Source: a virus. From it: a stretch of DNA of 41,350 nt. The stretch is taken from positions 1-41,350 of IMG/VR virus record IMGVR_UViG_3300033145_001228; one strand, given 5' to 3'. A program made the position numbers and the translations under genes. This document shows positions 12,488 to 41,207 of the stretch, in pieces; position 1 is the stretch's first letter, and each line of letters begins with the position of its first letter. The notes beneath the pieces were generated by a model, which saw only the letters and a program-made list of their open reading frames with translations, did no database searches and was not told where the DNA came from.

Positions 12488-12861
12488 ATAAAAAATAAAC
12501 TCGGTATCAAAACAAATGGCGTAAACGGTCTAGGTTTAAATAAGAACGTATTCCTATGATAGTATATATTAAGAGCAAATGCAAACAATAAAATTAAAAA
12601 AGAATAATTCCCCATGAAAGCACCTACCATTGCCATCAGTTTTACATCCCCTCCGCAAAACGCACCTTTAGAAAAGATCAGAGCTCCAATCAAAAACATC
12701 AACAAAGCATAATCCCAATTACCAGTAAAATATATCCCAACCGCAATAGCCGGCAACACAATCACATTAGGAATAATCAATCTCTTAATATCACAAACTG
12801 TCAGAACAAACATAATTAATATAAATATCAGCGTCGGAAAAGACAAGTTAAGCTCTCCCAA
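12478..12861 (-). CDS. Minimal A24-family (prepilin peptidase / TadV / FlaK-like) membrane aspartyl protease, 127 aa
   Basis: Both catalytic-Asp motifs are present: VCDIKRLIIPN (first Asp) and CGGDVKLMAMVGAFMG (GxGDxKL). About 4 hydrophobic helices. No methyltransferase domain. Confidence 0.75.
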   Translation of the reverse strand: MGELNLSFPTLIFILIMFVLTVCDIKRLIIPNVIVLPAIAVGIYFTGNWDYALLMFLIGALIFSKGAFCGGDVKLMAMVGAFMGNYSFLILLFAFALNIYYHRNTFLFKPRPFTPFVLIPSLFFIWV

Positions 12862-14163: not shown

Positions 14164-14164
14164 G

Positions 14165-14485
14165 TTATGTATCCTCCGATACATCTTGCTTACTTGTTTT
14201 CTCTTCCTGTTCAATCTTCTTAATAAGATCATCCTCACTAGCAAAAATCTTAGCCGGTATCTTCTTAATGAATTGAGTGATTAAATATATTTCATGATCG
14301 ATCAGCTTCAGCTCATAGATCGTCTTTTCATCAGCCCTGTCCAAAGCTGTCAGAGCTTTATGCTTCATCTGAGCATCAACGTACTTATTAAGAATATCAA
14401 TGAACTCATGCCATCCGGAGTTAGGCGTTAGCGTAAGCCGGCGCATCTCCTCAGCACACCTAAGAAGCTCATCCCGCTTCTTCAT
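14165..14485 (-). CDS. Hypothetical helical protein (106 aa)
   Basis: ATG at 14485 preceded by AAGAAGGA, just after the portal stop. The track ORF start at 14542 overlaps the portal gene. Confidence 0.55.
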   Translation of the reverse strand: MKKRDELLRCAEEMRRLTLTPNSGWHEFIDILNKYVDAQMKHKALTALDRADEKTIYELKLIDHEIYLITQFIKKIPAKIFASEDDLIKKIEQEEKTSKQDVSEDT

Positions 14486-16595: not shown

Positions 16596-16880
16596 TTATT
16601 TTCCGAACAAACTCATAATTGAGTTTATTATACTGAATCCTTTAATGTTAACAACCCCCATTGCATAGGCACTTGCTTTCGCGGTGTCAGAATTATCAAG
16701 ATTAAAAGCCCCTATCTCTGCACCAAGATCAATATGCTTAGATGTAAAAACAATATCATCAGATTTGACCTTGATACCTAAATCCATTTCATCCAACATT
16801 TCAATATTGTATGCAAACGCGGGTGAAACTACTGCAAACATCAACAACATTACTACTGCGATTACAATTACTTTCTTCAT
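16596..16880 (-). CDS. Small secreted protein between TerL and portal (94 aa)
   Basis: MKKVIVIAVVMLLMFAVVSPAFA|Y Sec-type signal. SD AGGAGG upstream. Confidence 0.55.
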   Translation of the reverse strand: MKKVIVIAVVMLLMFAVVSPAFAYNIEMLDEMDLGIKVKSDDIVFTSKHIDLGAEIGAFNLDNSDTAKASAYAMGVVNIKGFSIINSIMSLFGK

Positions 16881-16996: not shown

Positions 16997-18325
16997 TTAC
17001 ATATTATCCATCGATCCAGGCTTCTTCTTTTCTCCTCGCTGTCCAGTAGACTTCAGCGGCGAAAATCTATTAACTGCAACATACTCTAACGCGTTCATAG
17101 GATGTTCATAAAATCCATCCTTAAAAGGAATATCAAATTTATAGGTTGATTGTTGCCCTTCTTTTTTGACAGGATAATGATACCCTCCTAAAAAGCCATC
17201 ATTAATTATTCTACAACTAGGGTCTACTACGATTAATGGTAATCCACTCTGCAATGTATTTATCTTACTCTCAATAATCTCTTTACGCAAGCGATATTCT
17301 GAAACTTTAGTATGGATGAAAATTTTCTTTTGCTGTAGTATTTGATGTGATGTTTGTTCTGACTTATCATTAACCTGATGAAATGCCGGATCTCCGAAAT
17401 ATCTAATGTTGGCATTAGGAAAATTCTCATTTAAAAAAGGAACAACCTGAAGCTCCGCAAACCTCTCAGTTGTAATGTCCGTTCCCATGAGCTCACGCAA
17501 AATCTTCCAATACGGCCCATCGATCTGAGTTACCACAAAAGCTTGATGATGGTAGCCAGGATCCCAACCACAATCAATCGGAAGCTGAGGATTCCAACTG
17601 CATTTACGCTTGTGAACCATCTCTATGTAGCCCTCATAGTACGGCTTACCATCCGGCGTGAAGCCATATTGCCCTTCCAGGTACTTTTTACGCCAGGATG
17701 GGGGTAAATGCTCTAAAGATTCTATGTAATCAGGCGGTAAATGCTCTTTATTCTCATAAGTCGAGGCATGAAAGGTAGCATGGCCAGGGTTGTTTTCAAG
17801 CTCAAATACCCTATAAATCCAGTGATCCTCATTAGGCGGGTTTGATACAAGCCACCCGCAGCGCCTATCTGAGAGGGTTGAGGATAAGCGGCCCTTGAGA
17901 TATTCAAACATAGTCTCTTCAATCTCTTCAGCCTCATCAATAAAAAACCAAGACAAATTCAAAGATCCGAGCTTTTTACCATTCTTCAGATGCCGGTAAA
18001 GGATTGTTGAGCCATTCCTGAGCATAATCCTATGTTCGGTCCGGTGATGTTCTTTTACAAAATCTTCAGGAATAACTTCGTCAAGGAGTGTTTTAATCGT
18101 GGTATCACGCAAGTCAACATAATCCTTGCGGAATATAACGCCGGTACAGCCAGGATAGGCAAGGCATTGTTTAAATACTTCAATACAGCCGGCATAAGTC
18201 TTACCCGCGCGCCATGCACCTATGTATAATCTGTACTTTGCTTCCGATAAATGAAAGTCTGATTGCTTTGGAAGAGGTTCGTAATCAATATCTAATGCCA
18301 AATTATTCTCTTGAGTTTCTGGCAA
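16997..18325 (-). CDS. terL: Terminase large subunit
   Basis: Walker A GAWRAGKT, Walker B WFFIDEAEE, C-terminal nuclease region with GWDPGYHH. 442 aa. Confidence 0.9.
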   Translation of the reverse strand: MPETQENNLALDIDYEPLPKQSDFHLSEAKYRLYIGAWRAGKTYAGCIEVFKQCLAYPGCTGVIFRKDYVDLRDTTIKTLLDEVIPEDFVKEHHRTEHRIMLRNGSTILYRHLKNGKKLGSLNLSWFFIDEAEEIEETMFEYLKGRLSSTLSDRRCGWLVSNPPNEDHWIYRVFELENNPGHATFHASTYENKEHLPPDYIESLEHLPPSWRKKYLEGQYGFTPDGKPYYEGYIEMVHKRKCSWNPQLPIDCGWDPGYHHQAFVVTQIDGPYWKILRELMGTDITTERFAELQVVPFLNENFPNANIRYFGDPAFHQVNDKSEQTSHQILQQKKIFIHTKVSEYRLRKEIIESKINTLQSGLPLIVVDPSCRIINDGFLGGYHYPVKKEGQQSTYKFDIPFKDGFYEHPMNALEYVAVNRFSPLKSTGQRGEKKKPGSMDNM

Positions 18326-18907: not shown

Positions 18908-19191
18908 ACATTTTCCTTTTCAAATAATTTAATAAGCGCACCAATGCAATTCTCAACATCTACTTCTTCCAGCGGGGCGTTTAATTGAGTAATCAAAATA
19001 TACTCTATCTGGTGTCTTTCCGGCATTTCCGCCCTAGCCTTTATAATCTCTTGTTTGAGATAGGGGTCAAGGGCTTTAGCTAATTCCTCAGTAGATATAT
19101 CAGATTCATACCAAACCATTAAATCTCTATGGATGTCTTTCCCATTATCAAGCAATATTCGTTCAATCTCCGGCTTCTTAATGTCTTTCAT
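18904..19191 (-). CDS. Hypothetical protein (95 aa)
   Basis: ORF with GGAGG upstream; acidic, helical. Confidence 0.6.
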   Translation of the reverse strand: MKDIKKPEIERILLDNGKDIHRDLMVWYESDISTEELAKALDPYLKQEIIKARAEMPERHQIEYILITQLNAPLEEVDVENCIGALIKLFEKENV

Positions 19192-19239
19192 AGAACCTCC
19201 AATAAAGACCTTAGTAGGTCTGAGTTAAACCGTTTAGGT

Positions 19240-19500
19240 CTAGCCATCGCCATAGCCATAGCCAGAGCAATCGCCAGAGCCAGAGCCAGAGCCAGAGCCA
19301 TAGCCATAGCCAGAGCCATAGCCAGAGCCAGAGCCATCGCCAGAGCCATCGCCATAGCCATAGCCATCGCCATAGCCATAGCCAGAGCCATCGCCAGAGC
19401 CAGAGCCAGAGCCATCGCCAGAGCCAGAGCCAGAGCCATAGCCATAGCCAGAGCCATAGCCAGAGCCAGAGAGCTTGCCTATCATGTCTATTTTTTCCAT
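19240..19500 (-). CDS. Gly/Ser/Tyr/Asp repeat peptide (86 aa)
   Basis: MEKIDMIGKLSGSGYGSGYGYGSGSGSGDG... The ATG at 19500 is preceded by AAAGGAGTTAAACA. The other two frames open over the repeat have no comparable start context. Confidence 0.6.
   Translation of the reverse strand: MEKIDMIGKLSGSGYGSGYGYGSGSGSGDGSGSGSGDGSGYGYGDGYGYGDGSGDGSGSGYGSGYGYGSGSGSGSGDCSGYGYGDG
19243..19470. repeat. Tandem hexanucleotide repeat, about 38 units of GCC-A[GT][AC] on the plus strand
   Basis: Uninterrupted run of gccata/gccaga/gccatc units. Open in three frames. Confidence 0.9.
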
Positions 19501-20661: not shown

Positions 20662-20921
20662 TTCTTAGTCTCCAATGTAATTTTTCTAGTTTCATAATTT
20701 ATCTGAAGAAACAATCCATCTTTAGTAATTTCAGCCAGCGTTGGAAGATGATATGTTTCAATAATCGAATCCCAATTCTTATCTCTCATTAAAATTGCTT
20801 GTGTCTCTAAATTCTGCAAGGTTAAACGCTGAGAAGTTATTGATGACATCTGAGCCTCAATAGCTTTAAAAACATCAACAAACTTCTGATCAACTGTTGC
20901 TAATTGATGATCACATGTCAT
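20658..20921 (-). CDS. Hypothetical protein (87 aa)
   Basis: ORF coupled by overlaps on both sides. Confidence 0.6.
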   Translation of the reverse strand: MTCDHQLATVDQKFVDVFKAIEAQMSSITSQRLTLQNLETQAILMRDKNWDSIIETYHLPTLAEITKDGLFLQINYETRKITLETKK

Positions 20922-23026
20922 TTTAATCCAGCCTTTTTTATCATATTCAGATTATGCCGCGCATCCTCCAATCTTGGATTAATAGAAAGAGCTTTATTTA
21001 AGAATAAAGTAGCCGTTTGATAGCGCTTCTGGATCAACTCAAACGATCCTAAATTACACCATCCAACATCATAGCGCGGAAAATTATTCACAAGATTAAT
21101 GGTAATAATATAAGACTCCTCAAGCCGGCCAGTATTCCGGAGAACCTGACAAAGCTTATCACCACCATCTAAGAATATTAGATCCCGCTTATTAACATTC
21201 ATATTTGACATAAATTCTCGATAATATTGTTCGGCCTTCTGAATATCTTCCTGATGTTTGGATTCTTTTGATATTTCAAACCAGGCATCAGCAAGCTTCT
21301 TAACAAGAAGAATCCGAAGCTCTTGAATATCAACCGCCATATTATTAATAACAACTTCATCTTGAGCATAAATTGGAGCAAGCATCTCAACAACCTTCAA
21401 ATAATCCTCTTCCCGATAATACAGCTCAGCTAAGTTTATAGCTGATCCAATACTCTGTGTCTCATCATAAGCCTTATGAAATGACTGCTTGGCCGCCATT
21501 ATCTGACCATTCTTTTGGCAACATAACCCACGTAAAATCCACATCTTGTCAGTAAGAGGATCTGGTTTCTCAGGATCAGGAGGAAATTTCTCAAAACATT
21601 TATCAATATACTTAATAGCCTTAATATTATTCTTATGCCCGCCCTGTATCATAAGAGAATTAACAATAGCAAAGTAATTAAGCGAGTGCGGATCCCCTTC
21701 CATGTCAGCATGAGCAAGCTTCAAGTTGCGGAGGTTCTTCCTCTTCACATCTTTCCACATACGATTTCCAAGATGATGACAAACAATATTGGACCGGCTA
21801 ACCTTAGCGCCGGCCTCAAGCATTGAAAATGTAACATCTTCATGCAGCTTATTGCGGAAATAAAAACCTTTCCCATTCTTAAATAGCCGATTATGAAGAA
21901 GGATCTCTTTCGTGCCTTTCTCTGTGTAGCTGTGAACCTCACATTTAAAGGCATCCGCTTCCGGATTCCGCATAATATAATCTTTAAGTATAAAAGGGTT
22001 ATCAATAAAATCATCTGTGTCATGCCATAAAATATAATCTTTGGTTGCCATTTCTAAAGACTTATTTCTCATTTCACTGAAATCAGTGAAATGAATGTAC
22101 TGCCATCCTATAGAATTTTCACCATTTTTAATCATATAATTATGGCAAAACTTTACAAACTTTTTACCAAAATTAAAAGACCTATGATTTTTATAATTAA
22201 AAACAATCTTAACCTCATCAACCCACCCATCAAAGCTTGACAATGCCCTCTTCAATACCTCCGGCTTCTCAGAATCAGCTACAATCATGCACACAGAAAT
22301 AGTAGCCTTACAATCCCTCAGCAACACCTTCATAATCTTAGAAACATCATTCTTAGCTGAATCCTTAACCCACCGCTTAAGCGCCGCGCCATCCCGATCG
22401 TACATACTCTGGCTATTTGTATATTCATAAATCTTATCCTTCTCAACCTTTTCATTCATAAAATGATTATGCTCAATAACAACCTCCGGCAAATAATATA
22501 GCCGGTTAATACCTCTACCGATCGTATACCACACATTATCACCGCAAAGATGTGTGAGCGAAGGCATCTGAAGATAGCCAACCGCGCGGACAATATCACC
22601 TGATATAACAGAAGTGGTACACATATTCTGACCCTGAATCTTATCATCACCGAAAGCTATCCCGCTACCAGTATTCTTCTTGATCACATCCATCAACTTC
22701 AGATCCCAATTCTTTGTGTGAAAGATAAAATCATCATTGCAAGGCATGTAATAATCCATATCCGGAAAGGATTCTGTTGCTATTCCGTTGAATATTTCCG
22801 TAATTGTCTTTTGCTTACCTATCATATATGGATACGGCTTGATATGCTGACGATACCTCTGCAACTCAGGATCATTATCATCAAGATAAAAAAGGACAGT
22901 TGTGTCGCGTGAAGCTGTTTTCTCAAAAGACTGAATAAACTTCTTCAACATCTTTGGCCGGCCGCGTGTAGGCACAATTACTAATAATTTCTTTCCTTCA
23001 ATTTGTTCAGTGTTTTTAGAATCCAT
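20918..23026 (-). CDS. Two GT-A glycosyltransferase domains fused to C-terminal TPR repeats (702 aa)
   Basis: Domain 1: LLVIVPTRGRP...FYLDDNDPE. Domain 2: ISVCMIVADSEKPEVLKRALSS...ILWHDTDDF. The C-terminal third has TPR-like repeats (AINLAELYYREEDYLKVVEML, NLGSFELIQKRYQTATLFLNKALSINP). Confidence 0.7.
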   Translation of the reverse strand: MDSKNTEQIEGKKLLVIVPTRGRPKMLKKFIQSFEKTASRDTTVLFYLDDNDPELQRYRQHIKPYPYMIGKQKTITEIFNGIATESFPDMDYYMPCNDDFIFHTKNWDLKLMDVIKKNTGSGIAFGDDKIQGQNMCTTSVISGDIVRAVGYLQMPSLTHLCGDNVWYTIGRGINRLYYLPEVVIEHNHFMNEKVEKDKIYEYTNSQSMYDRDGAALKRWVKDSAKNDVSKIMKVLLRDCKATISVCMIVADSEKPEVLKRALSSFDGWVDEVKIVFNYKNHRSFNFGKKFVKFCHNYMIKNGENSIGWQYIHFTDFSEMRNKSLEMATKDYILWHDTDDFIDNPFILKDYIMRNPEADAFKCEVHSYTEKGTKEILLHNRLFKNGKGFYFRNKLHEDVTFSMLEAGAKVSRSNIVCHHLGNRMWKDVKRKNLRNLKLAHADMEGDPHSLNYFAIVNSLMIQGGHKNNIKAIKYIDKCFEKFPPDPEKPDPLTDKMWILRGLCCQKNGQIMAAKQSFHKAYDETQSIGSAINLAELYYREEDYLKVVEMLAPIYAQDEVVINNMAVDIQELRILLVKKLADAWFEISKESKHQEDIQKAEQYYREFMSNMNVNKRDLIFLDGGDKLCQVLRNTGRLEESYIITINLVNNFPRYDVGWCNLGSFELIQKRYQTATLFLNKALSINPRLEDARHNLNMIKKAGLK

Positions 23027-24651: not shown

Positions 24652-24906
24652 TTATTGTTTTAACTTTGGGAAAAAAGGTATAAACATCGAGCTAAGAAAT
24701 CCAATCAAAATAATAACTAACATTATTTCAGGTAAAGTAAATCCTACTTTCCTCTTCAACTGGCATCCTAAATAATCCAATACTCCCCATGTCTTAATTC
24801 CAACAATTGTGTTTTGTGGAGGCGTTACAAGCCTTCCAAAAATCTTAAATCCTCGGTTCGTTAAATAGGCCGCTGCTTCATCCTCATGGTTAAATCTTTT
24901 TTTCAT
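24652..24906 (-). CDS. Pilin-like mini-protein carrying a class III (prepilin) signal motif
   Basis: ..QLKRKVG|FTLPEIMLVIILIGFLSSMFIPFFPKLKQ has basic residues, Gly at -1, Phe at +1, Glu at +5 and then a hydrophobic helix. SD AAGGAG lies before the ATG at 24906. An internal TTG (giving MKRKVG|FTLPE) is an alternative start. Confidence 0.55.
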   Translation of the reverse strand: MKKRFNHEDEAAAYLTNRGFKIFGRLVTPPQNTIVGIKTWGVLDYLGCQLKRKVGFTLPEIMLVIILIGFLSSMFIPFFPKLKQ

Positions 24907-28464: not shown

Positions 28465-31400
28465 TTAAAGTCCGGAGATTCCGCCAAACTTAATCTTTGA
28501 TTTTCGTTTCTTGGGAGAGAGCTTTCCAAACGGTTCACCTTTTAAAACTCTTCTTGTGAACACAACCGGAAAGCCGGTAAGCTTCCCTATTACATCTGCG
28601 GCCGCCTTTGCCTTTGAAGAGGTTTTCTTAGCCGATCCTACTTTTACAGCATCTTCCACTAATTGATCAAGCGGTGTACCGGATTGAAGGAATCCGGATT
28701 GCATTGATTGAACAAAGCTGCTGAATATGATAAAGGTTCCTGTTAATTGGCCTAATGTATCCCAAAAAAACTCTTTCTTATCAGGAGTCCTTCTTCTTGA
28801 TATAAAGCCTATAGCAAAAGCCGGAGCCAACCAGAGCATAATATTACCCTGAATGAACTTATTTATACTCATTTTACCCTTACCTGTCTTTTGATACAAC
28901 TCAAAGATCAGGTTAAAGTTCTGGTTAAGCTGATTCTTAAATATAGTATAAAGCTTCTGGATCTCAGAGCCCCTAAATACCCCTGGTAGATTAATGATGG
29001 ATCCCTGCGGCTGCGTGCGCCTGATTACCTTGTCAGCCCACTTAACAGCATCCGCTTCAGTCTTTCCTAAGCTGATTTGGTCAAAGTACGCGCCAATCCA
29101 TAAAGATGTAACTGTGGCCCTGTCAGCGGCTAATATAGGGATCATGACAAACTCCCGCCCGCGCTGAACCTTTCCTGTTTTTAGAAGCGCCGTTTTACCT
29201 CTGCGGGCCTGTATTTCCCTCAGCTCCCGCTCCTGCCGGAAGCTTCTGTTCTTCATAAATACTGACTTATTTTTAGAGAATTCAATCCATTTAATAGGAT
29301 TGCCTATAAACTTGACTGTGCCGCGCATAGCCGCGCGCTTCCCCATGAACTCAGCCCCTTGAAAATAAGACACCGGCTGCTTCATCATAGTAACAAAGTT
29401 TAATCCTAATACAGCTGTGGCATAATTTGTCCGGATAAACCTTGATATTTGGTCAATAGCTTGCATAGGAGCCTTATCACCGTTAAAAGCCACATCCTTA
29501 ATCCACTTATCAAGTTCAAAATAGTACCGCTTTCCAAAGTTTTCTTCAACCGCGCGCTTAAACTTCTTATTCGTAACAAACTTATTTACATCCCGCACAG
29601 ACTTAGCAAAAGCCTTATAATGCTCGATCTTCTGCCAGTTACGGAAAATAGTACCAATAAATGAAAAATCAGAAAAAGCCTTAGTTGAATGAACCCTACT
29701 TTTGGTAAAGCCCTTAACAACCCCTGCCCTGCGAACCGCTGCACGCTGTAATATATCCAGTTGAAGCTCTTTTTGGTAGCTTATATCCTCAAGCCGGTCA
29801 ATAGGAAAGTAATTCTCTTCTTTGGGAAGGTTTACCCCTTCAAGATCCCTGTGAATATCATTAAGCTTCTGATATTGATCTTCATCATAGAATTTAATAA
29901 TATCCCGCGCCATACTCTTCTCTTCATCAGTCAAAAACCTCTCAACCTCAATAAGATCATCCTGTGTTATGCCGCTGCCAATCAAGTGAGACATATTGCC
30001 GGCATTAAAACTATTAGCATATATAAATAAAGCTTGATCCTTTGTCATATTCTTGAACCGGCCAACAGTAAACTTCTTACCAAGCGTCTTATTAACATCC
30101 ATTGGTTTTAAGATCTTCTGTATCTTCTCAAGAGTCCTGGCCTGTTCTCTGAGCTTATCACCTTCAGCGGCTAATGACGGATCCCATATTGCCTGTGTAT
30201 TAATGCCTTCCTCGAAACCATCTAAGCCATTAACCATAACCTCCGGCCGTAAGTGCATAGCAATATAAGACTTAAGCCCTTCAAGACTCTTGTCAGCAAT
30301 ATTAGGATTATCCTCTAAAGTTCTTATGATAGCTGACTTCTCGGTGATCCCTTTGCCTTTAGTGATAGTATTGATCATATCATCTAAAGCAGCTTCAAAA
30401 TTATGGTTCTTAATATCGGTGAAAATCCGGTTCTTTGTACGGCCAAGATGTACTAAGCGCGCAATAACCTCATCAATATCCCTTAATTCCTGCAATGTAA
30501 TATCATTAAGCGTTACCTTCTCAAGAAGATCCAGGCTTTCCTGTGGGATATTAATCTCAACTCCCTGCTCCTCCTGTTGCTGAATAAAGATCTTCATACT
30601 CTCTCTGCGGGCTAAAGTCTTTTGTGTGCGGCGGCCAAAGTCAAAGCCGCTCTTAATCTCCTCAATCTTTTCTTTGTATTCAATCGGAAGGTTCTGAGTC
30701 GGAAGCTTATTAATCCTCTTTACAATACCGGATATTTCTTCTCGTACAGCCCTGCGCTCTCTCTCCCTGGCTTTAACGCTTCTTGTTTGAATCTTCTGAA
30801 CCTCAACACCTGTTACCTTACCAAAAACAAACGCTTTCCTTGAGATCTGCTGTTCCTTACGCAAAACCTCCGCAAGCGCCGCATCCGCGCTAATCAGATC
30901 AGATACTTTTAATTGTGCTGTAGATGCCCGAACAATCTGCTTAACTTTACCGGCCGGAACTTGTCTTTGTGAAATCTGTTGAATAATAGCCTGAACTTTA
31001 ACAATGGCTTTCTGATTCTTACGGATTCGGCTTAAGATATTCCTGAGCTGTGCCTTATCAGCCTTGTCAATAGGTTGCCGCGCCTCTTCAATAATAGCCT
31101 GTCTTAATTCCTCGCCATCTGCAAACTCATGACCAAATTGCTTCAGGCGCTCAACCGCCTCATCTAAAGGAACCTTGCCTTTTAATGATTTAGGAATAGC
31201 AGCTAATTCTTCCTTCAGTTTACCGGCTAATGTTGGCGCAATCCCGCCTATGTCCTTAACCGCTACAAGCAAATTAACCTCCGGAGTCTTAGCAAGTTCA
31301 GATAATTCAATTGATAATTCAGACTTTTCCTTCTCTTCAAGCAGCTTAGAAGTATCCTCAATCTCTTTAACCGCTTCCTGAAGCTTCGCAGGAGCAATCA

Positions 31401-32916
31401 CAGCCGGCACTTCGCGGGGAACTCTACGGAGTTTACGTTCAAGATCCAGCTTCTTAACCGGAACTGCTGGCTTCTTAACTGGAACAACAAGCTTCTTAGG
31501 TTCAACCGGCTCTAACCCTTCTTCCTTAAACAGTTTAGGAACAACTTTAGAAGGCTTGACCTCTTTAGTAATTACCTCCTCTTTTTCCTCTGCTGCCAAA
31601 ACAACAAACTCCGGCTTAACCCTTGCAATCTCTTTCTTAAGATCTTCCGGTATTTTACCCTTCTCAATCTCTTTAAGCTGATCAGGCGTAACAGTAATTG
31701 ACTTCGTATCCTGTCCGGATGATTCTTTTGAAAACGTGCTTACTGTCTGAAACGTAGCACCTGGCAACATAAGCAATGGAAAGCCTTCAGCGCTTGCTTT
31801 AAGAACACCGCCCATGCGATCAAGAGCATCTTGAGAACTGGGCCCCTTATATTTCTCATCCTTAGACACTACCTCAATCACACCAGCTAAGGCTTCTCCA
31901 CTTAAAGTAACCGCTTCCTGAGCTACCTCCTGTGTAATCTCAACACCGGTTGCACCAGCCAAATCAAGACTAAGGGCCAATAATTTTCCTCTAATAGTAG
32001 GATTTTTAAGAATGGCATCCTGAATCTTTTTCTTAAAGAATATACTCCCGCCAGGAAGCCTCTTTGCTATGGTTCCAAGCTGTGAAGCTTCAATAAATCC
32101 ATTAGCCACGCCAACTGCTTCACTCACAGGTTTGGCCACTTTAGGATCAATACCAGATTGAATCATCTCAATAAAAGCATTGCCGCCTTCAATCTTGCGC
32201 GTAAAGTCCACCACTCCAAACGTAGCCCCTACACTAAATCCGGCTAATGTAGTAGCCGGAACAGCCGGAAGCGCACCACCGGCAGCCGCCGCCGCAGCTC
32301 CACCGATAGCGCCGGCAGTTCCTTTCTTCAAGCTTTCCTGAAATCCCTTAATCATAAATGGCAGAAATTCAGCCGTACCGCCAACCATACGCTTTGGAAG
32401 TCCAAGCCCTTCAAATTCCTCTGGAAGCTCCTTTTGTAAATTCTCAATCGACCTCAATCCTTCTTCGCTTTGTATTTCACCGCTCTTAATCTTTTCACCA
32501 ATCAATCCTTGCTCAACAACAAACTCACCTTTCTTAAATCTCTTTTTTGCAACCTCAGCAAAAGAAGGCTCTACTTTTTTTGGCTTCAATCCTTCCGTAA
32601 CACCGGCCCTTAATGTATCAGCTAAAATGGGCTTAGGAGCCGTTCTAAGGCCCTTAATTAAATTAGGCAGGGGTGAGATCGTTTCCGGTGAGATCGTTTG
32701 AAAATCTTGAGTTGTGCCAGAGGAAACAGGTGTTCTAGGGGCTCTCAGGAGCTTAGTCGGAGAGGGTTTTGGAAATAAATCCTCAACAATCCTATTTCCT
32801 GGTTGTTGAGGTATGGATAGAGGAGTCTTTATATCAGGCTGTTGCTCAGTAAAAAGATCCTGAACAACTCCTGCTCCAACTGCCGACGCATCAAATAGAT
32901 CTTTTATAACTGGCAT
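28465..32916 (-). CDS. Giant virion-associated protein (1483 aa): internal/ejection protein (T7 gp16-like position) or tape-measure-like
   Basis: Size; Gly-zipper hydrophobic region GTAGAIGGAAAAAAGGALPAVPATTLAGFSVGATFGVV; long charged helical middle; C-terminal hydrophobic segments. Last gene of the structural block. No catalytic domain recognised. Confidence 0.6.
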   Translation of the reverse strand: MPVIKDLFDASAVGAGVVQDLFTEQQPDIKTPLSIPQQPGNRIVEDLFPKPSPTKLLRAPRTPVSSGTTQDFQTISPETISPLPNLIKGLRTAPKPILADTLRAGVTEGLKPKKVEPSFAEVAKKRFKKGEFVVEQGLIGEKIKSGEIQSEEGLRSIENLQKELPEEFEGLGLPKRMVGGTAEFLPFMIKGFQESLKKGTAGAIGGAAAAAAGGALPAVPATTLAGFSVGATFGVVDFTRKIEGGNAFIEMIQSGIDPKVAKPVSEAVGVANGFIEASQLGTIAKRLPGGSIFFKKKIQDAILKNPTIRGKLLALSLDLAGATGVEITQEVAQEAVTLSGEALAGVIEVVSKDEKYKGPSSQDALDRMGGVLKASAEGFPLLMLPGATFQTVSTFSKESSGQDTKSITVTPDQLKEIEKGKIPEDLKKEIARVKPEFVVLAAEEKEEVITKEVKPSKVVPKLFKEEGLEPVEPKKLVVPVKKPAVPVKKLDLERKLRRVPREVPAVIAPAKLQEAVKEIEDTSKLLEEKEKSELSIELSELAKTPEVNLLVAVKDIGGIAPTLAGKLKEELAAIPKSLKGKVPLDEAVERLKQFGHEFADGEELRQAIIEEARQPIDKADKAQLRNILSRIRKNQKAIVKVQAIIQQISQRQVPAGKVKQIVRASTAQLKVSDLISADAALAEVLRKEQQISRKAFVFGKVTGVEVQKIQTRSVKARERERRAVREEISGIVKRINKLPTQNLPIEYKEKIEEIKSGFDFGRRTQKTLARRESMKIFIQQQEEQGVEINIPQESLDLLEKVTLNDITLQELRDIDEVIARLVHLGRTKNRIFTDIKNHNFEAALDDMINTITKGKGITEKSAIIRTLEDNPNIADKSLEGLKSYIAMHLRPEVMVNGLDGFEEGINTQAIWDPSLAAEGDKLREQARTLEKIQKILKPMDVNKTLGKKFTVGRFKNMTKDQALFIYANSFNAGNMSHLIGSGITQDDLIEVERFLTDEEKSMARDIIKFYDEDQYQKLNDIHRDLEGVNLPKEENYFPIDRLEDISYQKELQLDILQRAAVRRAGVVKGFTKSRVHSTKAFSDFSFIGTIFRNWQKIEHYKAFAKSVRDVNKFVTNKKFKRAVEENFGKRYYFELDKWIKDVAFNGDKAPMQAIDQISRFIRTNYATAVLGLNFVTMMKQPVSYFQGAEFMGKRAAMRGTVKFIGNPIKWIEFSKNKSVFMKNRSFRQERELREIQARRGKTALLKTGKVQRGREFVMIPILAADRATVTSLWIGAYFDQISLGKTEADAVKWADKVIRRTQPQGSIINLPGVFRGSEIQKLYTIFKNQLNQNFNLIFELYQKTGKGKMSINKFIQGNIMLWLAPAFAIGFISRRRTPDKKEFFWDTLGQLTGTFIIFSSFVQSMQSGFLQSGTPLDQLVEDAVKVGSAKKTSSKAKAAADVIGKLTGFPVVFTRRVLKGEPFGKLSPKKRKSKIKFGGISGL

Positions 32917-33575
32917 TATTTAATAAATTTCCTCGCTCTTAAAGCGGAGATAATTTCATCCCTTGTTTTGTCCGGAAAGGCTGCCAGATTCTCAGTAATC
33001 AAAGCTTCTTCATCAGAAGTGAAATCTTCAACCTTTCCTGTTTTATCAATAGTTGCATCTCCGGTAATCTTCTTTGTTATCTTAGTTTGTTTCTTGAGCT
33101 TGCGTGACTTTACCGATAAAGCCTTAGCTTGCCCCCTTATAGCTTCGGCTTCAGGCGTGAATTTAGTTTCTTTTCTGAATGGCGCGCCACCTGTTACCAA
33201 TGCTCTAAGAAAACCAAGAGGCCCCAGCGGTCCGGTTCCTACTTCTTCCTGTTCAGTTAATCCTTTAAACTTCTCAGTAGCCGCTGCTGTTTCAGGAGTT
33301 AAACCTAGAATATTCTGCGCTTGAATAGCCTCGCCTAATCCTACCGGCTCATCAGTTGTCGTAACAGTTTTGGTTGTTTGGTCCTTCTTAAGCCCTGCCT
33401 TAAATGTCTCAAACTCCTTCTTCTCAGCAAGATCAACACCTTTAGTCTGTTTAGCAATTAATAATTTAATAAGATCGGATGTTTGAAGGCCCCCTGTTTG
33501 CTGAGGTAATCGAGAGGGAAGATTCCTTAATACGCCTTTCTGATCAAATAATATTTTAAAGAATAACATAATCAT
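32916..33575 (-). CDS. Virion-module protein with shared N-terminal leader (219 aa); internal-protein candidate
   Basis: MIMLFFKILFDQKG leader. TAATG overlap with the giant gene. Confidence 0.55.
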   Translation of the reverse strand: MIMLFFKILFDQKGVLRNLPSRLPQQTGGLQTSDLIKLLIAKQTKGVDLAEKKEFETFKAGLKKDQTTKTVTTTDEPVGLGEAIQAQNILGLTPETAAATEKFKGLTEQEEVGTGPLGPLGFLRALVTGGAPFRKETKFTPEAEAIRGQAKALSVKSRKLKKQTKITKKITGDATIDKTGKVEDFTSDEEALITENLAAFPDKTRDEIISALRARKFIK

Positions 33576-33577
33576 AA

Positions 33578-34432
33578 TTAACCCCCCTCCTTCTTCTTAC
33601 CAAAACCTAACAGTTGAGATAATAGAGCAGTATCAACAGCTGATTGACCAACCCCCGATACACCTTGACCTAGCCTTTGAGTAAAACTAGGCTCAAAAAA
33701 TGTTTCTGCTGGTTGACCGGTTAAGAAACTGACAGCTTGGCCTGAAGCACCCTGTTCTTCAGCTATTTGTCTCTGAAGGTCTTGAAGAGAAAATGCTTGG
33801 CCTTGAGCTTGTCCAGCCCTTTGTGTCTGACCTAATCCAAGCGCCTGACCTATATTGGCTTGAGCGAATGTCTCTTGAAGGCCTAATGCTTGAAGCTGGC
33901 TTTGGATCTGCTGAACAGCTAAATCAGAAGCTAAGAGTTCACCAGAAATGCGCTGCTTCTCAGATAAATCAGACTGTGCTTGAAGTCCAGGGGTAGAGGA
34001 CACAAGTCCTAATCGATTAAACCTATTTTGAGTCGCTTCCCTTTCTTCCTCGAATAACTCTTTTTGTCGGGCTCGCTGTGCATCGAAGGCCCGCTTTGTT
34101 ATATCCGCTGTTATTCCTTCGGCTGTAATAGGTGCACCAAGTCTTGTACCAATTGCTTTCTCAGCTTGAGCTTCTATGCCTGGCTGTGCTTGAGTAAGCG
34201 CTGGATCCTGAGTAAAAGAAGTTCTTTGCCCTAAACGGCCTGTAAGAAACTGAGACGTTTCCCCGCGCTCTTTTGCAAAAGGATCAATAGTTGTTTTCTT
34301 ATCCTTTCCAAAAGCACCAACAATTCCACCTATTGTTTTAGCAACTAATCCACCGCCAGCAGCTAAGGCAATCGGATCAATTCCTCTTTCATCCTTTAGA
34401 ATATTCCTAAATAACCTAATCAGTCTTTTCAT
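33578..34432 (-). CDS. Gln/Gly/Ala-rich virion-module protein with shared leader and a hydrophobic segment (284 aa); internal-protein candidate
   Basis: MKRLIRLFRNILKDERG followed by IDPIALAAGGGLVAKTIGGIVGAFG. Confidence 0.55.
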   Translation of the reverse strand: MKRLIRLFRNILKDERGIDPIALAAGGGLVAKTIGGIVGAFGKDKKTTIDPFAKERGETSQFLTGRLGQRTSFTQDPALTQAQPGIEAQAEKAIGTRLGAPITAEGITADITKRAFDAQRARQKELFEEEREATQNRFNRLGLVSSTPGLQAQSDLSEKQRISGELLASDLAVQQIQSQLQALGLQETFAQANIGQALGLGQTQRAGQAQGQAFSLQDLQRQIAEEQGASGQAVSFLTGQPAETFFEPSFTQRLGQGVSGVGQSAVDTALLSQLLGFGKKKEGG

Positions 34433-34437
34433 CTTAT

Positions 34438-34758
34438 TTAACCCTCCTTTGATATTTTGTCTGTTAGTATGCGTATATTCCTGTTCAACTCAATTGTGAG
34501 TAATGGCATTTGAACATCAACACAATTCCAAAAAGATGTTTCTTCTCCGGCATCATTTGAACTTTTAAATTCCATAAAGAACATACAAAACTTTCCAACA
34601 CAGGGTTGCCCTAGAAGTCGAGGACAAGATCTATTTCCTTCAAGATTCTCTCCCATAATATCAAGAACAGCTCCTTTATTTTTTAAAACCCTGTCCTTTA
34701 AATTCTGAGCAGCCGACAATCCTTTTTCTTTCTTCTTGAAAATAATTAATGGATTCAT
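34438..34758 (-). CDS. Cys-rich hypothetical protein (106 aa)
   Basis: ORF in the tail/fibre block. Confidence 0.55.
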   Translation of the reverse strand: MNPLIIFKKKEKGLSAAQNLKDRVLKNKGAVLDIMGENLEGNRSCPRLLGQPCVGKFCMFFMEFKSSNDAGEETSFWNCVDVQMPLLTIELNRNIRILTDKISKEG

Positions 34759-34761
34759 ATT

Positions 34762-35496
34762 CTAATCTTTCTGAAATAATTTCAAGGTTACATAAGCCGG
34801 AATATTATCCACACTTGATATTGTATGTGTGTGGCCTGATCCACCGCCTGTTGATCCAGTTGTTAAAGTGTTATTATCAGTATCAGTATCAGATGATAAT
34901 GTTGGGGGCGAAGAACCTATTGCACCAGAGGATTTTTTACTTACAGTGTGAGTATGAGCCGGCATTTCTGAAATAGAAATCGTATGGCTTCCACTTGCCG
35001 CACCATGATCATGCGTATCCGATCCCGCTTCGCTAAGCGCAGTTGAATTTATCCGTATAAACTTATTACCATAAGTGCTCGACTTATCTGTAAAACCATC
35101 CGGTGTATCCGCAGATGAAGATAAAACAACATCCCCGCTTCTTCCCCATGTAAGACCTCCGGATGCGCGGTTAATCATTTCAGCAACTTTAGCTCTAAGA
35201 CCACCATCTTGATTCGTTTCAAGCCCAGGATTCGTTGCTGATAAATCAACCTGAAGTGTTCCGTCGGTATGCTGAGATAATCCAAAATCTGTCCTTACCA
35301 CTGATCCGGCAATCTGAACATTAGTTACAGAATCAGCAGCTAGATTTGTTGAAGTTAGAGCATTTACAACAGCCTCTATTTCGTCATAATTCGTGTTAAA
35401 ACCTGAAGCCGTAATAACTGTATTAGATGTCTTTCGTGTTATAGCAAGCGTATCTCCTCGCTGATCTAATAATATCCTTAAAAATAATCTTAACAT
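34762..35496 (-). CDS. Fibre protein with phage tail-collar / MdpB-like C-terminal domain, plus shared leader
   Basis: GSHTISISEMPAHTHTV ... GGGSGHTHTISSVDNIPAYVTLKLF matches the His-rich collar-domain pattern. N-terminus MLRLFLRILLDQRG. Confidence 0.6.
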   Translation of the reverse strand: MLRLFLRILLDQRGDTLAITRKTSNTVITASGFNTNYDEIEAVVNALTSTNLAADSVTNVQIAGSVVRTDFGLSQHTDGTLQVDLSATNPGLETNQDGGLRAKVAEMINRASGGLTWGRSGDVVLSSSADTPDGFTDKSSTYGNKFIRINSTALSEAGSDTHDHGAASGSHTISISEMPAHTHTVSKKSSGAIGSSPPTLSSDTDTDNNTLTTGSTGGGSGHTHTISSVDNIPAYVTLKLFQKD

Positions 35497-36854: not shown

Positions 36855-38388
36855 GACTTCTTGAAACCCTCCTTAATGCTTTAGCCAAAAGCGCGTAATA
36901 TCTCACAAGCCATGCCTCATCTAATCCGGTTGTACCCATCGATACCTGGATAAGCTTCCCCTGTCTTGAAATTTCATGAGAAACCTCAGCATCAGATTCA
37001 ACGGCAAAACTATCCTCATCAAACTTAGCCACATCAAATAATGCAAATACTCCAACTCCTCCAAGCATATTCTGAGTTACAGTCTTTTCAGTAGCCGCAT
37101 TATTATCAATAACAAAATTTATATTAAGATTCCAATCTCCGGCATTATCATAAGAAAATTCGATCTTATTATATTTCTTCTCAATTGTCGGGTCTCCATG
37201 AGAAAGTCTTTTTGAGGAATAATTTGTATTGAAAGCCGCTCCGTCGTCGTTAGTTCCGGTATCATTTTTATAAACCTTTCCAACATACCCGCCATGATAT
37301 AACAAGTCCTGTCCGGCTGTATCAACCTCAGCAAAAGCATTAGCCGCGATAGAATAAATAAACCAGGGATATTGAAGCTTTCCAAACTTGTCTTGATATG
37401 GCCGGTTCCAATCCATAACAAGCGTTCTATCATTCGTTGTTTCTCCGGATGTTTTTGTAAATGAACACCAATACTGGCTGCGGTTATAAAGAAGTCCGGA
37501 CACAGCTTTATTCAGCCTTGATGTTACACCAGTTCTAATATAAGCCTTAATGTTATCTCCGACCGGAAAAACTGTATCTCCGATAGCCATATAAAAATTA
37601 AAGTCTTGAGCTAAGAATATAACCTGGCCGGAAGGCAACTCCTTCATGACTTGATGATTGACCGGACCAACATTAGTTGGAACCTTGTATATTTGAAATA
37701 ACGGATCCGACCCCCTGAACTGTACGCGATAAAGATGCGATCTTTTTCCAACAAGAAGATCATCTCCTTGCTTAGAAGCGCCGGTTAAAGCCTCTCCATC
37801 ATTATCAAAATTAAGAAAACTTGTGTACGGAGCAGAAGCATCACCCAAAGATCCATAATATAATAATCGAGGATCTGCTGTTGAATTAACCCAGGGATAC
37901 CTCTGCCATTCAATACAAAAACTTGCTGTAACGGAAGTTTCAAAGGTAGCTGCTGATCCGGTTCCATTCCATATTAAAGAATCATTATTTCCATTAACGG
38001 CTAAGACCTCATTTCCTAATGTTAGAAAGGCCCAGCGCACATTAACACCTTCAGTATATCCATCAAAAAGCTCTGTATAAGCATTGCTGGCAAACTTATA
38101 CAGCTTACCATCACTTCCGGCTCCCATAAAATGAGAAGTTCTTGTTCCGCTTGAAAACTCATTAAACTGAAAAAATCCTGTCCAGGCTACAGTTCCACCA
38201 ATTGATGCGCTTGTCAGAGCTGTAAATCCTTTTCTGGATCCCAATGAACCTTGAGGGTCTGAGAAGATATTAATGCTAGTCTCATCCCATTCACCGTCAG
38301 CTTTATTCTCATCAGAGTCTTTTGTATTGACTCCTAGAAAATTCTCCATAAATAAAAATGGTTGAAAGCGTCTACCTAGCATTACCAA
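36844..38388 (-). CDS. Large virion structural protein (514 aa); nozzle/tail-tubular-B-like by position
   Basis: Beta-rich and repetitive (GSDGKLYKF, NGNNDSLIWNG). Follows the adaptor-like gene. Function inferred from position only. Confidence 0.5.
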   Translation of the reverse strand: MVMLGRRFQPFLFMENFLGVNTKDSDENKADGEWDETSINIFSDPQGSLGSRKGFTALTSASIGGTVAWTGFFQFNEFSSGTRTSHFMGAGSDGKLYKFASNAYTELFDGYTEGVNVRWAFLTLGNEVLAVNGNNDSLIWNGTGSAATFETSVTASFCIEWQRYPWVNSTADPRLLYYGSLGDASAPYTSFLNFDNDGEALTGASKQGDDLLVGKRSHLYRVQFRGSDPLFQIYKVPTNVGPVNHQVMKELPSGQVIFLAQDFNFYMAIGDTVFPVGDNIKAYIRTGVTSRLNKAVSGLLYNRSQYWCSFTKTSGETTNDRTLVMDWNRPYQDKFGKLQYPWFIYSIAANAFAEVDTAGQDLLYHGGYVGKVYKNDTGTNDDGAAFNTNYSSKRLSHGDPTIEKKYNKIEFSYDNAGDWNLNINFVIDNNAATEKTVTQNMLGGVGVFALFDVAKFDEDSFAVESDAEVSHEISRQGKLIQVSMGTTGLDEAWLVRYYALLAKALRRVSRSRES

Positions 38389-39212
38389 ATATCTCCTGTA
38401 AAGTCGAATCGATCATGAAAATGTCCATCTAAGTGATTATCACTAAAATGGCCCTGATGTTGATAATCTTCGTATGGCCCATGCTGCGCGTGATTATCCG
38501 CAAAACCTCGCAATACTCTCACGCCTTTTTTCCTTAGCGGGCCCCTATTGACAGACAGCGCTCTATCAAGAATACCCATCCCTGGATTAGAAAGATCATG
38601 CCACTCCTGTTTCATCATGATCAAGCTCTCAGTATCACCTTGTTGCCTAAGCCTAGCCATTGAAACAAAGTGAGCAAAAGCACCGGAAAACTGTTTTGTA
38701 ATAAGGGTCTCAACACTTGAAGTTACATCCACCCATTGAAGTTCAATCTCCATAAAGACCGTATATGTTTTATCCGGCAACCTTCTAAACTGAATCTCCC
38801 AAAAATCACTCTCAGGCCTTGTTACAACAAATTCATGAGGAAGTCCGGAGTTCTCATTAGGATTAGTCCATTCATAAGCTCTTTGAACCGGAACCTCAGT
38901 TAAAGGATGCCGCGTTGTTCCATCTAATAAATAAGATTTTAAAACATTCTTGAAGGTAGCCGGCAATATGTCGCTTCCGGAATACTTAAATTTACTCGTT
39001 CCAATATTAAAAGAAATATCACTTCTTAAGAATTTCCAGTTTGTAAGATTGCAGAAGTCATGCCCGCGCTCATTGATAAGACGTTTAATCTTAACTGCCG
39101 CATCCGCGCTATCATCTCCTGTCATGTCGGCAACCATGCTAACGATACTGCCTTGTAAAATTCCTAAACCTCCGACCTCATCAAATAATATATCTCTTAA
39201 CAATTTAATCAT
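38382..39212 (-). CDS. Virion structural protein with shared leader (276 aa); adaptor-like by position
   Basis: MIKLLRDILFDEVGG leader. 7-nt overlap with the next structural gene. Confidence 0.5.
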   Translation of the reverse strand: MIKLLRDILFDEVGGLGILQGSIVSMVADMTGDDSADAAVKIKRLINERGHDFCNLTNWKFLRSDISFNIGTSKFKYSGSDILPATFKNVLKSYLLDGTTRHPLTEVPVQRAYEWTNPNENSGLPHEFVVTRPESDFWEIQFRRLPDKTYTVFMEIELQWVDVTSSVETLITKQFSGAFAHFVSMARLRQQGDTESLIMMKQEWHDLSNPGMGILDRALSVNRGPLRKKGVRVLRGFADNHAQHGPYEDYQHQGHFSDNHLDGHFHDRFDFTGDIW

Positions 39213-39221
39213 ATTGCCCCC

Positions 39222-39779
39222 TTAGTCTGCGGTCCAACGGCCGTATACTTCCATTCGTGGATGTTTTTTAAATAACTCGTTCAAATCTTTAGGTGATGGA
39301 TGCTTCCTTATTCCTCCAATAATATCATCAAGAAAATCTTTTTTTACCTGTTCCGAACAATACGGAGCCCAGGGATTATTTATAAACCTTAATCCTAATG
39401 CTTGTCCTAATACTCCAACATGATCATATCCTCTTTTCCACCAGGGTCTATCAAGCCTTCTTCTTATCCTGTCATATATCAGTTTTTCTTCTTCTTTAGT
39501 AAGATCTTTTATTTTCCAGAACTTTAACCGACTATTCGGAGTCATGTACCGGTTAAGAGAAATACCGGAAAATGTATTTCCTTGAGAAACAAATCCTCCT
39601 GGCCAGAGCATTGACATAACATGATTGTAATTTGCCTTTGTTCGCCACTTAATCAACCACTGAATAAATCCGGAGCTATGATCACTAAGTACAATCAGCG
39701 GCAAGTCCTCGCCCATTATCAATTTTGGCCTTATCACGCCTTCTATCTCCTTCCTTCCTACGTTCAGGAATTTGAACAT
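39222..39779 (-). CDS. Permuted papain-like (YaeF/YiiX, peptidase C92, NlpC/P60 superfamily) hydrolase; endolysin candidate
   Basis: ANYNHVMSM (His motif), RPWWKRGYDHVG and APYCSEQVKKDF (Cys motif) parallel E. coli YiiX (SDYSHTGML, GKPYDFSF, RQYCSEVVWKVY). The start is uncertain: ATG 39779, GTG 39737 after AGGAG, or ATG 39716. Confidence 0.7.
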   Translation of the reverse strand: MFKFLNVGRKEIEGVIRPKLIMGEDLPLIVLSDHSSGFIQWLIKWRTKANYNHVMSMLWPGGFVSQGNTFSGISLNRYMTPNSRLKFWKIKDLTKEEEKLIYDRIRRRLDRPWWKRGYDHVGVLGQALGLRFINNPWAPYCSEQVKKDFLDDIIGGIRKHPSPKDLNELFKKHPRMEVYGRWTAD

Positions 39780-40517: not shown

Positions 40518-41207
40518 CTATTTTGGGAATAATGCCCCTGCTGATATTTTTATATATTCTACATGCGCCTCTGTGGTAGCTGGACTTACTGGAAAATTTA
40601 TCACTCCAATTCTTATATTGCCGTTACTTGCGATATTGGGGTCTGCGTCATCACCTGCTCCATTTCTAGCCCATGCCCCATCGTCGTCTCTCGAATACAT
40701 TATAAATTCATCTCCAAACCATACTATTCTTATTGTGTACCAACTTACGTTATCAAAAGTTGTACCGAATTGGCTAACAAAAGCATTGGTAGAATCATAG
40801 AGCCAGACGCTATCAGACGTTATCATCATATTATGTCTATATGTTCCATTGTAAGACTGTATCTGGAAACAATCGTAAGTATCAGAAGTTCCATTAAAAC
40901 CACCCGCTAAAGCATCAAACTTAACTTTTAGTTGAATAGTATAAGCATAAATATTTGTTAATTTATTAAAAGTTTTGGTTTTCTTAGCGTAACTATTAGC
41001 CCCTGCTCCATCGCCAGCCAAAAGATGAAGTTGTCCAGCAGGGCTTTCTTCTACTGTAGCTGTACCTGCTTTACTGTCATTCCAATCGGTTATATCCTCC
41101 CAATCTTCATCTTTAATATCTGCACGAATACTATCTTGCTGAATGTATTTGTCAGTCTGGATAATACCTTCTATGTCTACGTCTGAATTGTAAGTTTTTA
41201 TTCCCAT
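40518..41207 (-). CDS. Tandem paralog C (229 aa)
   Basis: Aligns end to end with paralogs A and B (GIIQTD, EESPAGQLH, VKFDAL, YDCFQIQ, DSVWLYD, NVSWYTIR, GDDA, TTEAHV). Confidence 0.8.
   Translation of the reverse strand: MGIKTYNSDVDIEGIIQTDKYIQQDSIRADIKDEDWEDITDWNDSKAGTATVEESPAGQLHLLAGDGAGANSYAKKTKTFNKLTNIYAYTIQLKVKFDALAGGFNGTSDTYDCFQIQSYNGTYRHNMMITSDSVWLYDSTNAFVSQFGTTFDNVSWYTIRIVWFGDEFIMYSRDDDGAWARNGAGDDADPNIASNGNIRIGVINFPVSPATTEAHVEYIKISAGALFPK

Follow-up and report, generated by a model that had tools for sequence, protein, structure and literature searches.

The window analyzed here is a whole metagenomic contig of 41,350 bases (IMG/VR virus record IMGVR_UViG_3300033145_001228) on which every plausible gene lies on the minus strand, and it represents a large, metagenomic phage family with an N4-gp56-type capsid and an SU10-type portal. 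Six unrelated proteins encoded in it, namely, the major capsid protein, a scaffold-position protein, p276, the fiber-like p244, the Gly-zipper protein p284, and p219, start with a leader of 14 to 21 amino acids that is amphipathic and ends in D/C-[EQ]-x-G, and its head module encodes a small A24 (prepilin-type, GxGD aspartyl) peptidase. We consider it probable, at roughly 0.6, that this peptidase removes the leaders. The leaders, each given with the residues that follow the motif Gly, are located as follows:

39171..39212, minus strand: leader of p276 (gene 38382..39212), MIKLLRDILFDEVG followed by GLGIL
35455..35496, minus strand: leader of p244 (gene 34762..35496), MLRLFLRILLDQRG followed by DTLAITRK
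34382..34432, minus strand: leader of p284 (gene 33578..34432), MKRLIRLFRNILKDERG followed by IDPIALAAGGGLVAKTIGGIVGAF
33534..33575, minus strand: leader of p219 (gene 32916..33575), MIMLFFKILFDQKG followed by VLRNLP
11828..11890, minus strand: leader of the scaffold-position protein (gene 10814..11890), MFYFLKPILNLLFNITSDERG followed by LIKDG and then an acidic low-complexity linker
10743..10796, minus strand: leader of the major capsid protein (gene 9471..10796), MFIKIAYLFRSILMCQSG followed by VSTLD

A portable N-terminal leader on virion-module proteins

The six N-termini quoted in the original prediction, which was made from the letters of the window alone, are present on the minus strand exactly as given; the interval 32875-35496 to which the leader had been assigned holds three of them, and the other three lie outside it. 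In all six genes a Shine-Dalgarno sequence stands just 5' of the ATG, and the core motif D[EQ][RKV]G occurs six times in the full six-frame translation, each time near the start of a minus-strand open reading frame (ORF). To avoid circularity, we took the leaders of 87 capsid orthologues, all from genomes other than this one and anchored on a [GA]W motif, built a 12-column log-odds matrix from them, and scanned every position of the window with it in six frames. The top matches were the N-termini at 35496 (27.6 bits), 34432 (24.7 bits), and 33575 (21.7 bits), and those at 39212 (17.7 bits), 11890 (15.7 bits), and 10796 (12.6 bits) came next, against a mean shuffle maximum of 12.5 bits; one match of 16.3 bits in a short out-of-frame ORF is probably due to chance. 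Among the 58 gene products (12,736 residues), all six matches of at least 12 bits end at residue 14 to 21 and none is internal, the N-terminal share of positions being only 6.7%, and shuffled N-termini gave a mean of 0.013 genes with a leader match. The claim that a common motif leads unrelated virion-module proteins thus describes a real feature, far beyond chance according to both the matrix and the shuffles.

Once the leader is removed, the mature parts of the six carriers share no meaningful similarity. Where leader residues are identical, their codons differ in about half of the cases, which argues for selection on the peptide rather than for a repeat of the DNA. Together with conservation in more than 100 relatives and its gain and loss as a unit (see below), this bears out the earlier view of the leader as a module and not as a sign of paralogy. 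That chance resemblance or miscalled start codons could account for the leader can practically be dismissed: beyond the short length of the motif nothing speaks for such an explanation, and it is refuted by the matrix and shuffle statistics, the upstream Shine-Dalgarno sites, and the conservation of amino acids, which persists across orthologues at 50 to 60% identity. That the leader is genuine and conserved, and that it is a portable module of Flp-like type, we regard as virtually certain.

The weaker versions of the leader that had been proposed for the 1,483-amino-acid protein (at 32916) and for the 514-amino-acid protein (at 38388) did not hold, as both have negative scores and their orthologues conserve different N-termini. 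The 1,483-amino-acid protein (28465..32916, minus strand) is encoded downstream of leader genes; together with its orthologues in the relatives L008 to L011, it ranges from 482 to 1,483 amino acids in length and keeps an N-terminus of its own, M-[AP]-[IVL]-[RK]-..-D, unlike the leader, and its only matches are to PHROGs that derive from very large proteins and have no known function. A seventh candidate, at 7152 (...KLIDEVG), was rejected, since it fails the matrix; the protein is a coiled coil.

The carriers differ in what follows the leader. The fiber-like p244 has HxH repeats, with a Gp10_C domain recorded on its orthologue in L009. In p284 alone, a hydrophobic, Gly-rich (Gly-zipper) stretch follows the motif Gly, with no E5/Y6. 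An AF2 model of the capsid protein (low confidence, pLDDT 57, from which the leader region alone was used) places a helix at residues 2 to 13, followed by a disordered N-arm. The leaders have a hydrophobic fraction of 0.69, compared with 0.45 in the leaders of Flp prepilins.

The capsid protein has more than 100 homologues, all metagenomic and at 50 to 88% identity, nearly all of which start with the leader, followed by a conserved WTTEM.VTG. The capsid-leader consensus from position -12 to -1 reads K/R, F/L, L/F, L/F, S/A, I/L, L/F, L/F/R, D (N/C/S), Q/E, R, G (A), or in short K-[FL]-L-L-x-[IL]-L-x-D-[EQ]-R-G, and is that of an amphipathic helix plus a conserved junction. Position -1 is G in 68 and A in 19 of the 87 capsid orthologues, a set anchored on [GA]W, and G18 of the capsid protein is conserved to at least 90% in an independent alignment (A2); conservation is higher at the junction D-[EQ]-R-G/A than in the leader helix. 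The scaffold-position orthologue carries the leader in 23 of 23 genomes (e.g., MWKIFWSILFDERG followed by EDAPEGG), and the orthologues of p244 and p284 carry it in four of four relatives. For p219, no orthologue was detected in the relatives, and the genes at the same position there have no leader.

The protein p276 is polymorphic in this respect. Its orthologues in L004, L020, P0231, P0234, and P0236 have the leader (e.g., MNWLRQLLLDEQG followed by GLYINL and MFKLLLKLLKDELG followed by GLGI), and leaderless orthologues start with M-GLYINL, M-GLGI, or M-LGIV, and the sequence before these starts is too short to hold a leader. A Met before Gly is usually removed from the N-terminus. The leaderless start, with its Met removed, is thus the very N-terminus predicted by a cut after the Gly, which suggests that the leader is dispensable in mature p276 and that the boundary lies at the Gly. 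The leaderless orthologues provide the best indirect evidence for both points.

Short, seemingly leaderless capsid homologues were considered as a natural test of the leader and were rejected, as these genes are split by insertion of a LAGLIDADG endonuclease and the leader sits on the upstream exon. In L005 (9116-11131), L007 (3224-5195), L013, and L028, a short 5' exon with the leader is followed by a LAGLIDADG homing-endonuclease ORF and then by the remainder of 373 to 378 amino acids, so that the capsid gene of several family members is probably interrupted by a group I intron.

A minimal A24 peptidase in the head module

The head module and the peptidase are arranged as follows:

16997..18325, minus strand: large terminase
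14502..16520, minus strand: portal of the SU10/T7 type
12478..12861, minus strand: mini A24 peptidase of 127 amino acids with a TTG start (Pfam PF01478)
10814..11890, minus strand: acidic scaffold-position protein; the capsid gene follows directly
9471..10796, minus strand: major capsid protein of the Phage_capsid_3/N4-gp56 type (Pfam E=1.3e-16)

The product of 12478..12861 matches PF01478 with 44.8 bits against a cutoff of 26.5 (E=1.8e-11; profile positions 1 to 100 of 104), and its orthologues in relatives match the same family. The catalytic Asp residues are D24 in TD....IPN and D72 in GGDVKL, and the motifs TD....IPN and GGD[VI]KL are intact in 23 of 23 genomes (the unique genomes that cover the interval from portal to scaffold) despite an overall identity of 26 to 45%. 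By sequence, we take it to be a bona fide member of the A24 family. In every one of these genomes, an orthologue of 111 to 148 amino acids lies between the portal gene and the leader-bearing scaffold gene, the interval in which many phages keep their prohead protease. The phage protein and all of its relatives consist of the A24 domain only, with no methylase domain. At both motifs it aligns to a Flp-adjacent peptidase of Ralstonia (TSDLRSRRVPN and GAGDVKF). An AF2 model has five helices (pLDDT 72). Lys and Arg residues stand after the first transmembrane segment and in the loop before the second motif, a placement which, by the positive-inside rule, would have both Asp residues face the cytoplasm, in agreement with the known topology of the family (PMC10191384).

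The nearest cultured phages with the same capsid type, Ochrobactrum phage POI1126 and Paracoccus phage KLEP18-1, serve as outgroups and share the gene order of portal, acidic scaffold-position gene, and capsid; neither the leader nor the A24 gene was found in them. With both elements in the family and both missing from the outgroups, leader and peptidase are present together and absent together. A tblastn search found no mini-A24 in the cultured phages of the collection, and neither the window nor its relatives revealed a tad, cpa, or rcp gene, the neighbors of the A24 gene being portal, scaffold, and capsid. The distant A24 loci L050 to L052 are uninformative or incomplete for this comparison. 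One of them (L050 5980-6745, IMG/VR contig 3300020202_000241) has a distant mini-A24 of 33% identity in a replication-type context, and the ORF directly after it, at the contig end, starts with MKIFKFLILILNERG followed by EAEAE, a borderline leader match of 12.7 bits. Immediately downstream of the A24 gene of the window lies a gene for a 77-amino-acid CxxCxxCC protein (12254..12487, minus strand; PF03692, putative Zn/Fe-chelating), present in this genome only; it recalls the Cys-rich zinc site of PilD-type peptidases, a link that is speculative.

Two candidate enzymes had been named in the original prediction. The A24 protein stands as the best candidate, being universal in the family, syntenic with the head genes, equipped with both Asp motifs, and absent along with the leader from the outgroups. 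The other, a supposed C92 papain-like protein at 39222..39779 (185 amino acids), gave no Pfam match at E<5 and no NCBIfam match even at lenient thresholds; its sole match is a PHROG annotated as enoyl-CoA hydratase-like, and its gene is present in one relative lineage only and absent from seven leader-bearing lineages. It was therefore rejected as the leader protease. No prohead protease of the S78/U35, S77, S80, S14/S49, or S73 families was detected among the ORFs of the window scanned with Pfam, PHROGs, and NCBIfam. A search for a hidden protease in the scaffold-position protein found nothing, its profile revealing no protease signature or relative.

Flp-type leaders and the case for A24 processing

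The last residue of a prepilin leader is Gly or Ala, and the cut falls directly behind it, on the cytoplasmic side (PMC10191384, PMC4471445). For Flp prepilins, the maturing enzymes are A24 peptidases of the TadV/CpaA type, which have no methylase domain and also cut on the cytoplasmic side (PMC10191384), and the Tad prepilin of Caulobacter sheds 14 residues (PMC11067988). For comparison, a Caulobacter-like query was run, which yielded 246 plasmid records, and from these we took five genes annotated as Flp family type IVb pilins from four genera, the leaders of which (MKHAILQFLRDEQG, MKNLLARFARNESG, MNKLFKRFLRDESG, MSNLFARFLKDESG, and MTAFKFIKKFARDEDG) are all followed by ATAIEYG. In each of the five pilins, the phage-trained matrix scored highest at the Gly that is known to precede the cut, with values of up to 19.4 bits. 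When a matrix built from the five bacterial leaders was run over the window, p284 ranked first and p244 second of about 12,700 positions, in register, and p219 ranked fifth. The two systems are alike in (i) the length (14 to 22 amino acids in the phage proteins) and ending of the leader, M..[LF]...F[LA][RK]DE.G in the pilins and K[FL]LL.[IL]L.D[EQ]RG in the phage, (ii) the Gly or Ala at position -1, and (iii) a small, methylase-less A24 peptidase with two Asp motifs. They differ in that (i) the phage substrates are not pilins but capsid, scaffold, and fiber-like proteins, (ii) these have no ATAIEYG helix, the Gly-zipper stretch of p284 apart, and their leader is more hydrophobic, (iii) no tad assembly genes are present, and (iv) the phage peptidase is even smaller, at 111 to 148 amino acids, and sits in a head module; in a Ralstonia locus, Flp, peptidase, and CpaB stand together, and the phage A24 has no such neighbors.

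A class III signal has about 20 hydrophobic residues after the Gly and a Glu at position 5, and its helix inserts into the membrane and positions the scissile bond (PMC10191384). The original prediction had read the Gly, preceded by Arg or Lys, as the pattern of such a signal. In part this stands, as the Gly fits the specificity of A24 enzymes and the link is closer than had been supposed, the leader matching specifically that of the Flp/Tad prepilins, and the hydrophobic stretch that had been noted after the Gly of p284 is there; the strict label fails, since five of the six carriers have no hydrophobic helix in this position.

These observations suggest a scheme in which the phage family would have adopted, for its virion-module proteins, the leader peptide of the Tad/Flp (type IVc) pilus system along with the peptidase that goes with it. 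The capsid and scaffold-position proteins, p244, p284, variably p276, and in this genome p219 would be translated with an N-terminal leader modeled on that of the Flp prepilins but more hydrophobic. This amphipathic leader would supply membrane affinity and probably recruits otherwise soluble proteins to the membrane-embedded A24 enzyme, replacing the transmembrane helix of a prepilin; the TadV/CpaA-like mini-A24 would then cut directly after the motif Gly (or Ala) and free the mature proteins for assembly. We infer the cleavage itself, the exact bond, the enzyme, and the membrane step from the leader, the peptidase, and their joint distribution. That the GxGD enzyme serves as the general virion maturation protease of a tailed-phage family, with leader-held proteins released at the inner membrane by cleavage, is a more tentative proposition, to which we would give slightly less than even odds.

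Several results weigh against A24 processing: (i) all support for cleavage is indirect and consists of the starts of leaderless orthologues; (ii) the hydrophobic helix after the Gly is missing in five of six carriers, and what is hydrophobic here is the leader, across the scissile bond from the place where a prepilin has its helix; (iii) the scores of p284 and p244 in the bacterial Flp matrix, 13.1 and 11.9, are not above the shuffle maxima; (iv) a 14-column HMMER model of the five Flp leaders gave no significant match, as a motif this short has no power, and Pfam Flp_Fap gave none with the N-terminal 50-mers, short-motif methods being low in power; (v) no match of E<1 was found when the A24 model was compared with the Protein Data Bank (PDB) by Foldseek, and none when its profile was compared with PDB sequences; (vi) cleavage of similar shared leaders is dispensable in phage 80alpha (PMC5744158); and (vii) a canonical prepilin-like ORF at 24652..24906 could be the peptidase's own substrate.

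This last ORF (minus strand) encodes 84 amino acids in the early region and has a textbook type IVa prepilin cleavage/methylation site, ...KRKVG followed by FTLPEIMLVIILIGFLSSMFIPFF. Its match to Pfam N_methyl (E=0.0013) is below the cutoff, and 54 residues precede the Gly, with just a hydrophobic helix after it. It was not found in the loci of the relatives and is an accessory gene outside the conserved system; its role may be to interfere with pili or to exclude superinfecting phages, or it may be cut by the phage or host peptidase as a canonical substrate.

The leaders could instead be cut by a host enzyme, be it CpaA/TadV, PilD, or an unrelated protease, the phage A24 then serving the 84-amino-acid ORF, the processing of p284, or interference with host pili. 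Such a division of labor has a precedent in 80alpha, where the host protease Prp does the cutting and other staphylococcal phages carry the same leader on proteins that are not homologous (PMC5744158); a Tad peptidase of the host, provided that the host possesses one, would recognize Flp-like leaders, and the site at 24652..24906 would give the phage enzyme a canonical target. We nevertheless find this unlikely, because the A24 gene is universal and syntenic with leader-bearing head genes in 23 of 23 genomes and the 84-amino-acid ORF was seen in the window only, because leader and A24 are both missing from the outgroups, and because a private peptidase is hard to explain if that of the host suffices. 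Slightly more unlikely still is that the leader is retained as a permanent amphipathic helix, acting as a membrane tether, a chaperone or scaffold handle, or an intersubunit clasp, with the A24 unrelated to it. Its strong amphipathicity, its hydrophobicity above that of Flp leaders, and its predicted helix would suit such a role, and in 80alpha the scaffold leader is needed for assembly and its cleavage is not (PMC5744158). However, it is the junction D-[EQ]-R-G/A and not the helix that is most conserved, functional p276 orthologues without the leader start precisely at that junction, a single structural role is hard to fit to capsid, scaffold, and fiber-like carriers, and the leader matches one that is known to be cleaved, that of Flp.

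A capsid-targeting sequence as in T4, which the original prediction had cited as a precedent, would load proteins into the prohead, to be trimmed there by an unrecognized prohead protease. The leader on both scaffold and capsid would be in keeping with this, as would the position of the p284 and p219 genes just upstream of that for the 1,483-amino-acid protein, a putative site for internal or ejection proteins. Yet no prohead-protease family was detected in the ORFs scanned, the capsid protein itself carries the leader, the large 1,483-amino-acid protein has none, and the presence of the fiber-like p244, with its HxH repeats, among the carriers makes a pure head-targeting role unlikely; we consider this explanation very improbable.

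Removal of the leaders by the phage A24 would have its closest parallel among phages in 80alpha and Prp, where a short leader common to capsid and scaffold is borrowed from the processing signal of a cellular protein, the motif occurs on non-homologous virion proteins of related phages, and there is no classical prohead protease (PMC5744158). The 80alpha enzyme, on the other hand, is a host-encoded soluble cysteine protease, its signal mimics ribosomal protein L27, and the cut falls between F and A; here a phage-encoded membrane aspartyl peptidase would act on a mimic of a pilin leader and cut after Gly. The leaders of the window end in D-[EQ]-R-G and not in ..FF before a cut at A, unlike the Prp/L27-type motif (PMC5744158). 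With T4 gp21 and the proteases of phiKZ/SPN3US, the proposed system would share one protease for many virion proteins, a short consensus, and N-terminal propeptides on several head proteins. Those enzymes, in contrast, are soluble serine proteases inside the prohead with sites that end in Glu and are often internal, whereas the present motif has Gly as its last residue, is confined to N-termini, and is shared by a fiber-like protein, and no such protease was found in the window. Outside phages, the sugar-binding proteins of the Sulfolobus bindosome are also non-pilins with a prepilin-type signal processed by an A24 enzyme (PMC4471445); unlike the phage proteins, they retain the class III signal in full, with its hydrophobic part, and are cellular proteins exposed at the surface and not virion components.

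Our literature search found no report of a phage head module that encodes an A24 peptidase or of virion proteins that carry a Flp-type leader. Virion proteins with a common leader are known, as are pairs of prepilin leader and peptidase; a leader of the Flp type on such proteins and a mini-A24 in a head module appear to be new. To our knowledge, the phage maturation proteases known so far are all soluble serine enzymes, or host cysteine proteases, that act in or on the prohead. Cleavage by the A24, if confirmed, may therefore represent a new class of phage maturation protease, and would mean (i) a catalytic class and a cellular site that are both new to phage maturation proteolysis, (ii) a membrane-linked assembly step in an otherwise ordinary podovirus-like particle, (iii) the first prepilin-leader processing on proteins without the pilin transmembrane helix, and (iv) that the Flp leader alone is a sufficient portable recognition tag for a minimal A24 of about 120 amino acids. 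It would also help to define substrate recognition by A24 enzymes, a poorly understood protease family, and a compact tag-and-protease pair would be possible. With its more than 100 capsid clusters, the family is common in metagenomes, so that the mechanism would not be an isolated case.

Other features of the contig

Besides the head module, the window encodes a replication/early block and a distal virion module:

28-39 kb, minus strand: distal virion module with fiber-like proteins, a 514-amino-acid structural protein with an amidase-like part, and the 1,483-amino-acid protein

A search of 50,697 deposited phage genomes for near-identical DNA found no close relative of the window, no relatives were returned when 185k representative genomes were scanned with the capsid alignment, and the window has no tRNA genes. 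Past the capsid gene, in the place of the expected tail genes, many ORFs start with Sec-type signal peptides, which is odd for virion genes. The ORFs with such peptides are the following:

8957..9460, minus strand: ORF with Sec-type signal peptide
4794..5903, minus strand: ORF with Sec-type signal peptide
4513..4749, minus strand: ORF with Sec-type signal peptide
4153..4509, minus strand: ORF with Sec-type signal peptide
3027..4160, minus strand: ORF with Sec-type signal peptide
1374..2921, minus strand: ORF with Sec-type signal peptide
16596..16880, minus strand: ORF with Sec-type signal peptide

One example reads MKINKFIITILIMFLFCPLARA followed by DIFGS, and DIFGS past the predicted cleavage site also occurs in the relatives L001 and L004. 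Two genes past the capsid gene, 7871..8917 (minus strand) encodes a polytopic membrane protein that is conserved in the family, with Wzy_C on the orthologue of a relative, and 20918..23026 (minus strand) encodes a 702-amino-acid protein of GT2 glycosyltransferase and TPR type, conserved across the family; the two suggest modification of the envelope or of a glycan.

The contig ends carry genes for paralogous proteins of about 230 amino acids, 663..1364 and 40518..41207 (minus strand), which read MGKKEINSDTDITGIIQTDDY and MGIKTYNSDVDIEGIIQTDKY, respectively; no homologue of either was detectable in the loci of the relatives. Between two conserved small head-module genes lies a stretch of about 750 bp (13420..14244, minus strand) with an ORF of up to 274 amino acids; this ORF has no family match and no counterpart in relatives, and the stretch is probably an insertion. 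At 19241..19468, the hexanucleotide TAGCCA is repeated in 38 tandem copies with 84% matches, a repeat that yields a spurious ORF of the type MALAMAMALAL... at 19188..19457.

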